From assembly GCF_003790525.1 (NCBI RefSeq), contig NZ_CP033635.1: DNA of 64,000 nucleotides; one strand, written 5' to 3'. Within the stretch, counting starts at the first letter, position 1. Each line of letters opens with the position of its first letter. Origin of the DNA: Escherichia coli. GTDB lineage: Bacteria > Pseudomonadota > Gammaproteobacteria > Enterobacterales > Enterobacteriaceae. The position numbers and the translations under genes are program-made. Below the pieces are notes generated by a model, which saw only the letters and a list, made by a program, of their open reading frames with translations, searched no databases and was not told where the DNA came from. Positions 10,359-23,109 of the stretch are shown here, one piece after another.

Positions 10359-12695
10359 ATGAAGCAAATTCGTCTGCTGGCGCAGTATTATGTTGACCTG
10401 ATGATGAAGTTAGGTCTGGTGCGCTTCTCAATGTTGCTGGCGCTGGCCCTCGTCGTTCTTGCCATTGTGGTACAAATGGCGGTAACCATGGTGCTGCATG
10501 GTCAGGTCGAAAGCATTGATGTTATTCGTTCTATCTTCTTTGGTTTGCTGATTACGCCGTGGGCGGTCTACTTTCTATCGGTGGTCGTCGAGCAACTGGA
10601 GGAGTCACGGCAACGTCTGTCACGACTGGTGCAAAAACTGGAGGAGATGCGCGAGCGCGATTTGAGCCTCAACGTTCAGTTAAAAGATAATATTGCCCAG
10701 CTAAATCAGGAAATCGCCGTTCGTGAAAAAGCGGAAGCAGAACTGCAGGAAACCTTCGGCCAACTGAAAATTGAAATCAAAGAGCGCGAAGAGACACAAA
10801 TTCAGCTCGAGCAGCAATCCTCATTCTTACGTTCCTTCCTTGATGCTTCACCCGACCTGGTTTTTTATCGTAACGAAGATAAAGAGTTTTCCGGCTGTAA
10901 CCGCGCGATGGAGCTGCTGACCGGAAAAAGCGAAAAACAACTGGTTCACCTGAAACCTGCTGATGTTTACTCACCGGAAGCCGCCGCAAAAGTCATTGAA
11001 ACCGATGAAAAAGTGTTCCGTCATAATGTGTCACTGACCTATGAACAGTGGCTGGATTACCCGGACGGGCGCAAAGCCTGCTTTGAAATCCGTAAAGTGC
11101 CGTACTACGACCGCGTGGGTAAACGTCACGGTTTGATGGGCTTTGGTCGCGACATTACCGAGCGTAAGCGGTATCAGGATGCGCTTGAACGGGCCAGCCG
11201 CGACAAAACGACGTTTATCTCCACCATCAGTCACGAATTGCGTACGCCGCTGAATGGTATCGTCGGCCTGAGCCGCATTCTGCTGGATACCGAACTCACC
11301 GCCGAGCAGGAAAAATATCTCAAAACCATCCATGTTTCGGCCGTCACGCTGGGGAATATCTTCAACGATATTATCGACATGGATAAGATGGAACGGCGCA
11401 AGGTCCAGCTTGATAATCAGCCGGTTGATTTCACCAGCTTCCTTGCCGATCTGGAAAATCTCTCCGCCTTGCAGGCGCAACAAAAAGGATTGCGCTTTAA
11501 CCTGGAGCCTACGCTGCCATTACCGCATCAGGTCATTACCGACGGGACGCGTTTACGGCAGATCCTGTGGAACCTCATCAGTAACGCCGTCAAATTCACC
11601 CAGCAAGGCCAGGTTACCGTGCGCGTGCGCTACGATGAAGGCGATATGCTGCATTTTGAAGTGGAAGATTCCGGCATTGGCATTCCGCAGGATGAGCTGG
11701 ATAAAATTTTCGCCATGTATTACCAGGTGAAAGACAGTCATGGCGGTAAACCTGCCACCGGCACCGGTATTGGTCTGGCCGTTTCTCGTCGTCTGGCGAA
11801 AAATATGGGCGGCGATATTACGGTTACCAGCGAACAGGGCAAAGGTTCAACCTTTACGTTGACGATCCACGCACCGTCGGTGGCAGAAGAGGTCGATGAT
11901 GCGTTTGATGAAGACGATATGCCTTTACCGGCGCTGAATGTACTGCTGGTGGAAGACATTGAACTGAACGTGATTGTCGCGCGTTCTGTGCTGGAAAAAT
12001 TAGGTAACAGCGTTGATGTCGCCATGACCGGCAAGGCGGCGCTGGAGATGTTTAAACCGGGCGAATACGACCTGGTATTGCTGGATATTCAGTTGCCAGA
12101 TATGACCGGGCTGGATATCTCTCGTGAACTGACGAAGCGTTATCCGCGCGAGGATTTACCACCGCTGGTGGCCTTAACCGCTAACGTGCTGAAAGACAAA
12201 CAAGAGTACCTCAATGCTGGAATGGATGATGTGCTGAGTAAGCCGCTTTCTGTTCCGGCGCTAACCGCGATGATCAAGAAATTCTGGGATACCCAGGATG
12301 ATGAGGAGAGTACGGTGACGACAGAAGAGAACAGTAAATCAGAAGCATTGCTCGATATTCCCATGCTGGAACAGTATCTCGAACTTGTAGGACCGAAGCT
12401 GATCACCGACGGGTTAGCGGTATTTGAGAAGATGATGCCGGGATATGTTAGCGTGCTGGAGTCGAATCTGACGGCGCAGGATAAAAAAGGCATTGTTGAG
12501 GAAGGACATAAAATTAAAGGTGCGGCGGGGTCAGTGGGGTTACGCCATCTGCAACAGTTGGGTCAGCAAATTCAGTCTCCTGACCTTCCCGCCTGGGAAG
12601 ATAACGTCGGTGAATGGATTGAAGAGATGAAAGAAGAGTGGCGTCACGACGTAGAAGTACTGAAAGCGTGGGTGGCAAAAGCTACTAAAAAATGA
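10359..12695 (+). CDS. arcB: aerobic respiration control sensor histidine kinase ArcB
   Basis: 778-aa ORF with HisKA motif (STISHELRTPLNGI), receiver and HPt domains. Confidence 0.97.
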   Translation: MKQIRLLAQYYVDLMMKLGLVRFSMLLALALVVLAIVVQMAVTMVLHGQVESIDVIRSIFFGLLITPWAVYFLSVVVEQLEESRQRLSRLVQKLEEMRERDLSLNVQLKDNIAQLNQEIAVREKAEAELQETFGQLKIEIKEREETQIQLEQQSSFLRSFLDASPDLVFYRNEDKEFSGCNRAMELLTGKSEKQLVHLKPADVYSPEAAAKVIETDEKVFRHNVSLTYEQWLDYPDGRKACFEIRKVPYYDRVGKRHGLMGFGRDITERKRYQDALERASRDKTTFISTISHELRTPLNGIVGLSRILLDTELTAEQEKYLKTIHVSAVTLGNIFNDIIDMDKMERRKVQLDNQPVDFTSFLADLENLSALQAQQKGLRFNLEPTLPLPHQVITDGTRLRQILWNLISNAVKFTQQGQVTVRVRYDEGDMLHFEVEDSGIGIPQDELDKIFAMYYQVKDSHGGKPATGTGIGLAVSRRLAKNMGGDITVTSEQGKGSTFTLTIHAPSVAEEVDDAFDEDDMPLPALNVLLVEDIELNVIVARSVLEKLGNSVDVAMTGKAALEMFKPGEYDLVLLDIQLPDMTGLDISRELTKRYPREDLPPLVALTANVLKDKQEYLNAGMDDVLSKPLSVPALTAMIKKFWDTQDDEESTVTTEENSKSEALLDIPMLEQYLELVGPKLITDGLAVFEKMMPGYVSVLESNLTAQDKKGIVEEGHKIKGAAGSVGLRHLQQLGQQIQSPDLPAWEDNVGEWIEEMKEEWRHDVEVLKAWVAKATKK

Positions 12696-12807
12696 CCCCG
12701 GCTAGACCGGGGTGCGCGAATACTGCGCCAACACCAGGGAAATCTTGGCTGCGCCGTAAATTATTATGATGAGTTACAAGGGCACAGCACTGTTTTTCAG
12801 GCCGCAC
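12687..12807 (-). ncRNA. arcZ: small RNA ArcZ (RyhA/SraH), 121 nt, overlapping the arcB 3' end
   Basis: Reverse strand reads GTGCGGCCTGAAAAACAGTGCTGTGCCC...CACCCCGGTCTAGCCGGGGTCATTTTTT, matching the ArcZ sequence as I remember it, including its terminator hairpin. Confidence 0.85.
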
Positions 12808-12924
12808 GCAGTTAAGATAGCAAAACTTAAATGATTTGTTACATGAATCAGTTAAATGTGTGATGCGTAGCATTTTTATTAAAAAAATTAATGTGTTTCA
12901 GTCAATTGCGAAAGGATGATCACA

Positions 12925-13578
12925 ATGAAGAAAATTGGCGTAATTCTGAGCGGATGCGGCGTCTATGACGGTTCTGAAATTCATGAAGCGGTGTTGACGT
13001 TGTTAGCTATTTCACGCAGCGGTGCGCAGGCGGTCTGCTTTGCACCGGATAAGCAGCAGGTTGATGTAATCAATCATTTAACTGGCGAAGCGATGCCGGA
13101 AACGCGCAATGTGCTGATTGAAGCGGCACGAATAACGCGTGGTGAGATCCGCCCTCTGGCCCAGGCCGATGCCGCTGAGCTGGATGCGTTGATTGTGCCG
13201 GGGGGGTTTGGTGCGGCGAAGAATTTAAGCAACTTTGCCCGTCTGGGGAGTGAATGCACCGTTGACCGTGAATTAAAGGCGCTGGCACAAGCGATGCATC
13301 AGGCCGGAAAACCGCTTGGTTTTATGTGTATTGCCCCGGCGATGCTGCCGAAAATTTTCGATTTCCCGCTGCGTTTGACCATCGGTACTGATATTGATAC
13401 CGCAGAAGTGCTGGAAGAGATGGGCGCGGAGCATGTGCCGTGTCCTGTCGATGATATCGTGGTTGATGAAGACAATAAGATTGTCACCACCCCTGCATAT
13501 ATGCTGGCGCAGAACATTGCAGAAGCGGCGAGCGGCATTGATAAGCTGGTTTCCCGCGTGCTGGTCCTGGCGGAATGA
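12925..13578 (+). CDS. elbB: DJ-1/PfpI-like protein ElbB
   Basis: [30 protein letters not shown]..., 217 aa. Confidence 0.9.
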
Positions 13579-14303
13579 GTAAAAGCCGCTTAACGGTGTT
13601 TAGTTTCGTTCGCCGTTTTCTTCTGCGGTTAATGGTTGTCCTCGCCGTTTTCTGGGGCGGGGGCATCGCGTTGTTTAGCGTTGCGCCTGTTCCCTTCTCA
13701 GCGGTAATGGTTGAGCGGCAAGTCAGCGCCTGGCTGCATGGCAATTTTCGTTACGTGGCACATTCTGACTGGGTCAGTATGGATCAAATCTCGCCGTGGA
13801 TGGGACTGGCGGTGATTGCCGCAGAAGATCAGAAATTTCCTGAGCACTGGGGCTTTGATGTCGCTTCCATTGAGCAAGCCCTGGCGCACAACGAACGCAA
13901 TGAAAACCGTATTCGCGGTGCGTCAACGATTTCTCAGCAGACAGCCAAAAATCTCTTTTTATGGGATGGGCGCAGCTGGGTTCGAAAAGGGCTGGAAGCC
14001 GGATTAACGCTGGGGATAGAAACGGTCTGGAGCAAAAAGCGTATCCTGACGGTTTACCTGAATATCGCCGAATTTGGCGACGGTGTGTTTGGCGTCGAAG
14101 CTGCGGCACAACGTTATTTCCACAAACCCGCGAGCAAGCTTACCCGGTCGGAAGCTGCATTACTGGCAGCTGTATTACCTAATCCACTTCGTTTCAAAGT
14201 CTCCGCGCCATCGGGCTACGTGCGTAGCCGTCAGGCGTGGATTTTACGGCAGATGTATCAGTTAGGCGGTGAGCCGTTTATGCAACAACACCAGCTTGAT
14301 TAA
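13575..14303 (+). CDS. mtgA: monofunctional peptidoglycan glycosyltransferase
   Basis: 242-aa ORF with transglycosylase motifs ([16 protein letters not shown]); 4-nt overlap with the elbB stop. Confidence 0.93.
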
Positions 14304-14932
14304 GCTTCGCGCGAAGTGAGGGCCAGCGTTTTGCTCTCACGAGGTTGCAGATCTTTCTGCAGGGCAATAGCCAGCGCCGGTTGGGCGATAAATCGTTTCC
14401 ACAACCGCTCTTGCTTACGCAGACAACACCACTTCGACCAGGTCGCCAGTGGAATCAATGTGCTTTCACCAATGTTGTCGCAGACGACGGGGATAACCTC
14501 TGACTCACTGATGCGATGACAAAGGATATTCTGCGGCTTCAGCGACATCGTCACGATACGGTTATCCTGTAAATAACGCTTCAGCTGTTTCAGTAGCTGG
14601 CGCAGTTGTGCAATGTCTTCTTCGTAACGGCATTGTTCAGCAAATTCGGTCAGCGTAATGGAGGGCTTGCCGTCAAAATCTGCAATCACATCGTAGACAT
14701 AACCGGTTCCGCAATCCGTCTCAACGGTACCGTGATAGCGCGGTATTCCACTCCAGTCTTTTAACCGGCGACCAAGATGCGCGTAGTACTTTAACTCACG
14801 GCGGATCTCTTTATCGCCACCATCGCCACGATGGTAGACAATCTTGATACAGCGTTGGGCATCTTCCGGATGCGCATAACATTTCCGATGTCTTCCGGTG
14901 CCCAGGGGACTTTGTTCAGATAAGCGAATCAT
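14300..14932 (-). CDS. yrbL: PhoP-regulated protein YrbL (210 aa; ORF-track start trimmed)
   Basis: ORF contains [28 protein letters not shown]... Confidence 0.85.
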
Positions 14933-14982
14933 GCCATCTCCTGGAAATATTTTCTGACGATCTCCAGTATGGTCGATTAACT

Positions 14983-14999
14983 TAAACAAAACCTAAACA
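14983..14999 (-). promoter_or_regulatory. PhoP box (TGTTTA-N5-TGTTTA direct repeat) upstream of yrbL
   Basis: Reverse strand reads TGTTTAGGTTTTGTTTA about 50 bp upstream of the yrbL start. Confidence 0.55.
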
Positions 15000-15145
15000 A
15001 TGCCTCTTAAGGTTTTCTTAAGGTTCTTCTGAAAGTAAAAAGCGCACAAAATGTACAAATGACGTTGATTGAGAACGATTTCAGTACGTGATTTTCTTAT
15101 TGTCGGGGGGAGTTTGAAGGGAGTTGTATGTCAAAGTGATGAAGA

Positions 15146-15418
15146 TTAATCTTCATCAAAACCAGAATTAAAGAGGGCGATAACGGCGGCCAGTGCTTCC
15201 TCTTCCTGTGGACCGGTCGCTTCAACTTCAATCTGCCGTCCTTTGGCAGAATCCAACATCAGCAGCGCAATAACGCTGTTGGCTTCAGCCTCGGTGCCTT
15301 CGTCATTACGTAACAGCACTTCAGCGTCAAAACCTTGCATTAATTCAAACAGCTTCATTGCAGGCCGGGCATGCATGCCCAGCTTGTTTGTGATTTCAAC
15401 AGTTTGCTTGACGGTCAT
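15146..15418 (-). CDS. npr: phosphocarrier protein NPr
   Basis: 90-aa [29 protein letters not shown]... Confidence 0.93.
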
Positions 15419-16269
15419 GGTTTACGTTTTTCCAGCGTACGATGGCGTGACTGGACGTTTTTACCGCGCGAGCGGAAGTAGTCAGCCAGTTGCTCTGCAA
15501 TATACACCGAACGGTGCTTCCCGCCGGTACAACCAATGGCGACCGTCAGGTAGCTACGGTTGTTGGTTTCCAGCATAGGTAACCATAGCTCAAGATAGCT
15601 TCGCGTCTGGTAGATAAAATTGTGTACTTCTGTGTGGCGGTCGAGGAACGCGGCGACAGGCTTATCCAGACCTGTCATTGGACGCAGTTTCGGATCCCAG
15701 TGCGGGTTCGGCAAGAAGCGCACGTCAAAGACGTAATCTGCATCGATAGGGATACCGTGTTTGAAGCCGAAAGACTCAAAGACCATGGTCAGTTCGCGTT
15801 CACGTTTACCCAGCAGACGGGTACGCAGCATTTCAGCCAGCTCGTGAACGGACATTTCTGAGGTATCGACAATCAGATCCGCTCGCGAACGCAGAGGCTC
15901 CAGCAAATCGCTTTCTTTGTCGATAGCACTTTCCAGCGACAGGTTTTTGCTGGAAAGCGGATGCAGTCGGCGCGTGTCACTGTAACGACGAATTAAGGTA
16001 TTACGGTCGGCATCCAGGAACAGTAGTTGCGGTGAGAAAGCGTCAGGCAGGTTACTCATCGCCTGTTCGAATATTTCTGGTGACTCCGGCATATTACGAA
16101 CATCAATGCTGACGGCGGCAGAAATCTCGCGATCGGCCAGAGTTCGAGCCAGATCGGGTAACAACACTACGGGAAGGTTATCCACGCAGTAAAAACCCAT
16201 ATCTTCCAGCGCACGCAGGGCGACAGATTTACCTGAACCTGAACGTCCGCTGACGATCATCAGTACCAT
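15415..16269 (-). CDS. rapZ: RNase adaptor protein RapZ
   Basis: 284-aa ORF with P-loop GRSGSGKS. Confidence 0.95.
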
Positions 16270-22131: not shown

Positions 22132-23109
22132 TTATTCAACGAGTATTGGCGATAACCAGTACAACATCGCCAGCCATACGATAAATCCGCCAGTTAATAA
22201 TACCCCTACACCACGGCCCGATTGCGGGGAGCGCCGCCAGCACAGCAACGCAAAAATAATGCTCACCAGCAACATCACGCTGTAGTCACGACTGTACGCC
22301 AGTGGATCAATCTCTCCTGGCGTTATCAGCGCGGGTAAACCCAACACGATGACAATATTAAAGATGTTTGCGCCAATAATATTTCCGACCGCAATGTCGT
22401 TTTCACCTTTGCGAACCCCCGCTATTGCGGTTGCCAGTTCCGGCAGGCTGGTTCCGATAGCAATTGCCGTCAGACCCATCGTCAACTCGCTGATGGCAAA
22501 GTAATTCGCCAGCACCGTGGCGTTATCAACCACCATCCGCGTGGCCACTGGCATGATGATAAGCGCAATGCCGAGCCATAAAAACGCGACGGGCAATCCG
22601 CCGTCACGCGGCAGCTCTGCAAGCTGCTCTCTGGTCAGGCTGTCAGTCCCCTGACGTTCAGCCTGACGTGCAAGTTTAACAATGAACAGCAGCCATAGCA
22701 CAGCCAGAAAGAGGAGAAAGATACCATCGCTGCGACTAAGTTGTCCGTCATAGAGTACGGAACCGGCCACCACGCTGACCAACAACATTAAGGGTAATTC
22801 ACGGCGTAGAACATCGGAATGGACGGTAAAAGGACGAACCAGCGCAGCCAGACCGAGGATCAGCAATATATTGATAATGTTTGAGCCGAGGGCTGTACCA
22901 ACGGCTAAATCGCGTTGTTCGTGCAGAGACGCGGCAAGCGAGACGATGATTTCTGGTAACGATGTACCAATACTGACCACCGTCATGCCGATGATTAGCG
23001 GCGGGATGCCAAAGGTTCGGCAAAGAATAGACGCGGCAAAAACCAGGCGGTCGGCACTGTAAACGACCAAAAGTAAACCAACAATTAACAGTGCCGTAGC
23101 TAAAAGCAT
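22132..23109 (-). CDS. yrbG: putative Na+/Ca2+ antiporter family inner membrane protein
   Basis: 325-aa hydrophobic ORF with duplicated GTSLPE motifs. Confidence 0.88.
   Translation of the reverse strand: MLLATALLIVGLLLVVYSADRLVFAASILCRTFGIPPLIIGMTVVSIGTSLPEIIVSLAASLHEQRDLAVGTALGSNIINILLILGLAALVRPFTVHSDVLRRELPLMLLVSVVAGSVLYDGQLSRSDGIFLLFLAVLWLLFIVKLARQAERQGTDSLTREQLAELPRDGGLPVAFLWLGIALIIMPVATRMVVDNATVLANYFAISELTMGLTAIAIGTSLPELATAIAGVRKGENDIAVGNIIGANIFNIVIVLGLPALITPGEIDPLAYSRDYSVMLLVSIIFALLCWRRSPQSGRGVGVLLTGGFIVWLAMLYWLSPILVE

Follow-up and report, generated by a model that had tools for sequence, protein, structure and literature searches.

The gene yrbL lies, in the 64,000-nt stretch of Escherichia coli DNA studied here (the window), within a cluster of housekeeping genes, and just before it the sequence carries a short tandem repeat resembling a PhoP-binding site. 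The question raised by the locus is whether this repeat is a genuine operator that places yrbL under PhoP control and, with an open reading frame of the gene extending into the repeat, where the gene begins. A sequence-only reading of the window had proposed that the repeat is a canonical PhoP box, that yrbL is regulated by Mg2+ and PhoPQ, and that the extended reading frame is unlikely to be real. yrbL is a textbook case of a gene in the ancestral PhoP regulon, and the E. coli gene was reportedly assigned to the regulon by Minagawa in 2003 and Zwir in 2005. We are highly confident that 14983-14999 on the reverse strand is where PhoP binds the yrbL promoter of E. coli, in a circuit that is activated by PhoP and repressed by PmrA/BasR.

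The earlier description of yrbL as sitting amid the rpoN/npr-mtgA housekeeping genes agrees with the annotated gene order, which is ptsN–rapZ–npr–yrbL with mtgA and elbB convergent: npr (15146-15418, reverse strand) is upstream of yrbL, with rapZ, ptsN, hpf and rpoN beyond it, and mtgA (13575-14303, forward strand) converges from the downstream side. The 1.2-kb region is 100% identical to that of E. coli SMS-3-5 and is found in 5,425 of 5,426 complete E. coli genomes. The yrbL coding sequence occupies 14300-14932 on the reverse strand (210 aa and a stop), the ATG at 14932 being the start that RefSeq gives in SMS-3-5 and K-12, and the CATGAT around it is invariant across species in the alignment. 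In RefSeq the product is called "PhoP regulatory network protein YrbL". Its match to Pfam PF10707 (YrbL-PhoP_reg) scores 226.9 bits, above the gathering threshold of 31.5 (E = 2e-67), and spans residues 2-185 of the 210. Compared with K-12 MG1655, the npr–yrbL intergenic region of the window differs at one base, outside every conserved element, so that data from K-12 are applicable to the window; the K-12 RefSeq record itself lists no regulatory features at the yrbL locus.

Three side observations concern the gene and its surroundings. The 3′ ends of yrbL and mtgA, on opposite strands, overlap by 4 nt (14300-14303), which leaves no room between them for terminators of their own. The ArcZ sRNA (Rfam RF00081) is present at 12700-12807 on the reverse strand, between arcB and elbB (120.8 bits, E = 2.6e-28), where it is expected in E. 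coli. Finally, a protein 99% identical to E. coli yrbL is encoded on a 420-bp contig labelled 'Tannerella forsythia ATCC 43037' (NZ_JUET01000135.1), which is almost certainly E. coli contamination of a Bacteroidota assembly.

The repeat and the core promoter

Read on the reverse strand from 14999 to 14983, the site is TGTTTAGGTTTTGTTTA: two identical TGTTTA hexamers, the distal at 14994-14999 and the proximal at 14983-14988, separated by the 5-nt spacer GGTTT. The perfect direct repeat with 5-nt spacing is thus as the sequence-only reading described it, and so is the distance of about 50 bp to yrbL, the box ending 50 nt upstream of the annotated ATG and being oriented the same way as the gene. 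The half-sites have the sequence of the PhoP consensus and not of PmrA, RstA, OmpR or CpxR. When both strands of the 64-kb window were searched for the exact pattern (T/G)GTTTA-N5-(T/G)GTTTA, a single match without mismatches was found, at 14999 to 14983, against a chance expectation of 0.03 from 100 dinucleotide shuffles. With up to two mismatches allowed, there were 13 matches where 12.4 were expected; relaxed matches thus occur at the chance rate, and only the site at 14983-14999 stands out. The next-best match, at 23074-23090 with one mismatch, lies inside a 325-aa coding ORF and was dropped.

The placement of the repeat is that of a promoter element. A −10 hexamer, CATACT, is found at 14966-14971 on the reverse strand, 11 nt downstream of the box; it is conserved among relatives and matches the Salmonella −10. 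Relative to the inferred transcription start, the box covers about −36 to −20 and overlaps the −35 position, and these features (right orientation, 11 nt to CATACT, overlap with −35, architecture I) bear out the earlier designation of the site as canonical. A consensus scan of 14200-15500 returned no consensus sigma-70 −35/−10 pair, as is expected where an activator site replaces the −35. By homology with the S1 mapping in Salmonella, the PhoP-dependent start would be near A14963 on the reverse strand, and we give it as a range (14957-14963) since the Salmonella −10-to-+1 distance of 2 nt is unusually short. By the same analogy, we infer a leader of roughly 31 nt for E. coli yrbL, the distance from the −10 to the ATG being 33 nt in E. 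coli as against 34 nt in S. arizonae. A Shine-Dalgarno sequence, AGGAG, can be read at 14938-14942 (reverse strand), 5 nt before the ATG, and the segment containing it, CCAGGAGAT, is conserved in Escherichia and Citrobacter.

Conservation of the promoter

For the phylogenetic comparison, loci were retrieved by similarity of the YrbL protein, which makes the sample unbiased by promoter sequence. The initial set comprised 11 loci from Escherichia clades, E. albertii, Citrobacter and S. arizonae; further orthologs were added through protein search and exact-sequence look-ups, among them six syntenic loci (npr–yrbL–mtgA) from S. enterica, Siccibacter, Superficieibacter, Pluralibacter, Erwinia sp. 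CPCC 100877 and Cedecea. In an alignment of 12 sequences, invariant columns are concentrated in the PhoP half-sites, a PmrA box, the CATACT hexamer, the ribosome-binding site and start codon and one block farther upstream, and the stretches separating these elements diverge. The gap between the PhoP box and the −10 is 11 nt in all 12 close relatives and equally in all of 17 promoters drawn from seven genera (Escherichia, Citrobacter, Salmonella, Siccibacter, Superficieibacter, Erwinia sp. and a non-syntenic copy in Enterobacter). When these 17 were stacked without gaps and anchored on the −10, the half-sites shared columns in every one of them; majority identity was 0.87 and 0.85 in the half-sites and 0.99 in the −10, against 0.48-0.63 in the spacers, with CATACT in 16 promoters and CATAAT in the one from Enterobacter. 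Pluralibacter and Cedecea have a degenerate box. Taken as a whole, the pattern of conservation is the one that would be expected of a functional operator whose helical phase relative to the −10 is fixed.

The Enterobacter copy is a case of its own. The E. hormaechei assembly GCA_030868155.1 contains a 192-aa YrbL homolog, 60% identical and outside the npr–mtgA context, and no long ORFs were found within about 1.3-1.5 kb on either side of it. Its upstream region keeps the conserved block and, 11 nt apart, a PhoP box (TGTTTAatgtcCATTTA) and the CATAAT −10; judging from these sequences, yrbL and its promoter module seem to move together.

The promoter also varies within the species. Across 5,409 complete E. 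coli genomes, the 66-nt promoter core (14960-15025) is identical in 3,123, and one to three positions are changed in 2,282 (about 42%). In two sampled variants the changes fall at window positions 14988, 14992 and 15004 and turn the proximal half-site from TGTTTA into CGTTTA, besides altering a base of the spacer and a base between the boxes. The 'perfect' PhoP box is a K-12-type allele and not universal; the first position of the half-site had already been described as variable, C, T or G, by Zwir et al. (PMC3335776).

Two further elements upstream of the PhoP box

The first of these is a PmrA/BasR box, CTTAAG-AAAAC-CTTAAG, on the same strand at 15006-15022 (about −59 to −43), with 6 nt between it and the PhoP box. 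It fits YTTAAK-N5-YTTAAK perfectly, as no other site in the window does (0.13 expected by chance), and it had been missed by the sequence-only reading; with this adjacent box, the yrbL promoter has two inputs, not one. The region of the box, TTAAGAAAACCTTAA, is nearly invariant among relatives, the box is conserved across genera, and the 6-nt gap to the PhoP box is kept in 11 of 12 close relatives. Two papers (PMC3335776, PMC2681069), both citing Zwir 2005, report that PmrA binds and represses E. coli yrbL, and the first of them describes the repression as direct. For a repressor, a site at −59 to −43, farther from the gene than the PhoP box, is unusual. In E. coli B adapted to iron, the BasSR regulon (eptA, arn, basR) was strongly up-regulated and yrbL was among the most down-regulated genes (PMC13405929); the drop comes from correlative RNA-seq and is consistent with BasR repression through 15006-15022.

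The CTTAAG half-site is itself palindromic, so the orientation of the box is set by its spacer only. At the loci of Erwinia sp. CPCC 100877 and Cedecea colo, the spacer is inverted, giving CTTAAG-GTTTT-(A/C)TTAAG, and the box thus stands in reverse-complement orientation relative to that of E. coli. A natural deletion is found in the E. coli ST131 strain 4993 (NZ_CP103557.1), where 11 bp at about 15006-15016 are missing; the PmrA box thereby loses precisely one of its repeat units and a single CTTAAG is left. Four of the 5,409 records fall in the identity band of this strain, and the predicted effect of the deletion is to relieve yrbL of repression by BasR.

The third element is a 20-nt block, TTGTACATTTnGTGCkCTTT, at 15039-15058 on the reverse strand (about −95 to −76), upstream of the PmrA box by some 35 nt. 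None of the 12 Escherichia, Citrobacter and Salmonella sequences departs from it, and Superficieibacter, Pluralibacter and the non-syntenic Enterobacter copy retain its core, TGTAC-N5-GTGC, as does Siccibacter with TCTAC in place of TGTAC. An npr terminator can be clearly seen upstream of the block in C. amalonaticus, Siccibacter and Pluralibacter, which assigns the block to yrbL, and its presence at the Enterobacter copy indicates that it travelled with the gene. The block is probably part of the yrbL control region.

Several identities for the block were considered and set aside. A search of 12000-16000 against Rfam at E ≤ 1 returned nothing besides ArcZ, and the npr–yrbL spacer folds no better than shuffled sequences (z = 0.45); with no Rfam match and no stable fold, an RNA element or an npr terminator was rejected. 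Among 19 consensus motifs for known regulators, the best was that of Fis, matched at 10 of 11 positions, a score reached by chance in 0.3-0.9% of 20-mers and not significant after 19 trials; a sigma-54-like site matched at 7 of 11 positions with the essential GG missing, and RstA, OmpR, the marbox, CRP and the other tested sites scored poorly. Searching the accessible literature for the block sequence on both strands returned no papers. A tentative suggestion from its conservation, which we would not call probable, is that the block may bind a third, undescribed regulator of yrbL, here called X. If it does, yrbL would be a three-input promoter, controlled by PhoP, PmrA/BasR and X, and the third input could account for the behaviour of yrbL in single-cell work, where it is noisier and less PhoP-proportional than any other member of the regulon.

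Regulation of yrbL and competing readings

The claim that yrbL is regulated by Mg2+ and PhoPQ is upheld by published work on Shigella, Salmonella and E. coli and is reflected in the name of the gene product. In Salmonella, Zwir et al. 2012 (PMC3335776) included yrbL among 23 PhoP-activated promoters that were DNase-footprinted and S1-mapped: the box is TCGTTTAGGTTTTGTTTAA, the CATACT −10 follows at 11 nt, the leader has 32 nt, the −10-to-+1 distance is 2, and the −35 was scored with 4 mismatches. The single start gave an S1 signal only in the wild type at 10 µM Mg2+, and the promoter was assigned to 'architecture I' together with mgtA, phoP, slyB, pmrD and orgB, with class II activation predicted (PMC3335776). 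For Shigella flexneri, Lin et al. 2018 (PMC5775216) give the yrbL site as the 19-mer tTGTTTAggtttTGTTTAa, identical to the site in the window; they report that phospho-PhoP shifts the yrbL fragment dose-dependently in EMSA, that lacZ fusions respond, and that expression of yrbL in ΔphoPQ falls to 0.02 on microarrays and 0.07 in qRT-PCR. In E. coli, the signal of a yrbL-GFP reporter increases with PhoP under optogenetic control, yrbL being the least PhoP-sensitive and noisiest among the reporters followed at the single-cell level (PMC13215669, 2026), and hyperosmotic stimulation of PhoQ induces the gene (PMC5740661). The PhoP site of yrbL and its regulation have, then, been known and experimentally documented for some twenty years; the PhoP dependence of expression that the sequence-only reading named as its check is in print, and the finding is ordinary. 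Its value is that of a positive control, in which a reading of the raw sequence located a validated operator and rejected a spurious ORF extension; what goes beyond that reading is a promoter with at least two inputs, PhoP activating and PmrA/BasR repressing, and a third, deeply conserved element upstream.

These data are best explained by a class II-type, activator-dependent sigma-70 promoter. When Mg2+ is low, or in response to cationic peptides, acid pH or an osmotic upshift, PhoQ phosphorylates PhoP, a dimer of which binds the tandem TGTTTA half-sites that stand in for the −35 hexamer. The bound PhoP would recruit RNA polymerase to the weak CATACT −10, 11 nt downstream, and transcription would begin a few bases past it, giving a leader of about 31 nt that leads through AGGAG to the ATG at 14932. 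PmrA/BasR on CTTAAG-N5-CTTAAG, 6 nt upstream, represses the promoter and, as PhoP can activate PmrA via PmrD, yrbL sits in an incoherent two-input circuit. The sequence of the site, its uniqueness, geometry and conservation and the start codon are observed directly in the DNA; PhoP binding, the dependence on PhoP and Mg2+ and the repression by PmrA rest on the literature. The class II contact we infer for yrbL by analogy, such a contact being demonstrated only for mgtA (PMC3335776).

Three competing readings have to be weighed against this promoter. The most direct concerns the mechanical 229-aa ORF opened by a TTG at 14987-14989 on the reverse strand: were that ORF the true gene, the repeat would be coding sequence and not a promoter element. 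As the earlier reading had noticed, the start of the ORF track at 14989 does fall inside the box, within its proximal half-site, and the in-frame stretch from the TTG to the ATG is uninterrupted in E. coli and four close Escherichia lineages. The would-be extension is nevertheless broken by in-frame stops at −48 in E. albertii, −48 in C. amalonaticus and −15 in S. arizonae, with no upstream in-frame start in any of the three, and the Citrobacter and Salmonella leaders carry 1-nt indels in the alignment. The TTG is, moreover, upstream of both the −10 hexamer and the mapped start, and with transcription beginning near A14963 it would be absent from the PhoP-dependent mRNA, a conclusion that is independent of the exact start base within 14957-14963. 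The RefSeq start at 14932 with AGGAG 5 nt before it and a Pfam domain that starts at residue 2 of the 210-aa form argue the same way. The doubt cast earlier on the extended ORF was well placed: the TTG is a false start codon, the extension of yrbL to 14989 is not real, and we give a coding role for the repeat virtually no credence.

A chance origin of the direct repeat in a T-rich intergenic region, with no regulatory role, is just as improbable. Three of the 100 window shuffles did yield a perfect match and imperfect matches are found at the chance rate, but chance does not account for half-sites and an 11-nt register that are kept across seven genera while the spacers diverge, nor for the published EMSA, footprinting and phoP-dependent expression at identical or orthologous sites; published PhoP binding and the phylogenetic footprint have already refuted this reading. 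Somewhat less remote, yet still very unlikely, is the idea that the site is real and mainly used by another regulator of the OmpR family, or that PhoP has a minor role next to PmrA/BasR and a factor acting at the upstream block. The low PhoP sensitivity of yrbL among the single-cell reporters (PMC13215669) speaks for it, as do the strong swings of yrbL with the state of BasSR (PMC13405929) and the existence of the third conserved element. It is contradicted by Shigella, whose promoter sequence is the same and where the yrbL ΔphoPQ microarray ratio is by far the lowest among the genes in the available part of the table (PMC5775216), by the direct binding of phosphorylated PhoP to the yrbL fragment described there, and by half-sites that fit PhoP and none of the four other consensus sequences compared. 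The evidence is thus best read as a PhoP operator that drives yrbL and is joined by a repressing PmrA/BasR box.

Hints about the function of YrbL come from outside the promoter. On two metagenome contigs, YrbL homologs of about 50% identity are encoded directly after dnaE and beside LPS/LOS genes, these neighbours being a Wzy_C O-antigen ligase-like protein and GT25 and GT2 glycosyltransferases; one of the contigs carries a second YrbL paralog. PF10707 is placed in the protein-kinase-like clan, as are WaaY and the Kdo kinases, and the YrbL substitutions E42G and V149L arise in selections for antimicrobial-peptide resistance (PMC11842939). Together, the LPS/LOS neighbours, the kinase-like clan and the peptide-resistance mutations hint at an envelope or LPS-related kinase.

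Placed beside known systems, the promoter in the window is the same locus as the yrbL promoters of K-12, Shigella flexneri and Salmonella Typhimurium, and nothing of substance is different; the Salmonella promoter departs from it in a CGTTTA distal half-site and a leader that is 1 nt longer. Like the architecture I promoters of mgtA, phoP, slyB, pmrD and orgB, it has a single direct box about one helical turn before the −10 that replaces the −35, and it is distinguished from them by a distance of 11 nt from box to −10, where theirs is 12 nt, and by the adjacent, repressing PmrA box. A 2009 analysis described the PhoP and PmrA boxes of yrbL, about 24 bp apart, as a 'bi-fan' motif (PMC2681069). 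The closest parallel is pmrD, whose promoter is likewise activated by PhoP and repressed by PmrA and has a PmrA box near the PhoP box (PMC2681069); the two promoters differ in the spacing of the box centres, which is 23 bp for yrbL in the window and about 24 bp in the Salmonella figures, as against about 38 bp for Salmonella pmrD (PMC2681069).
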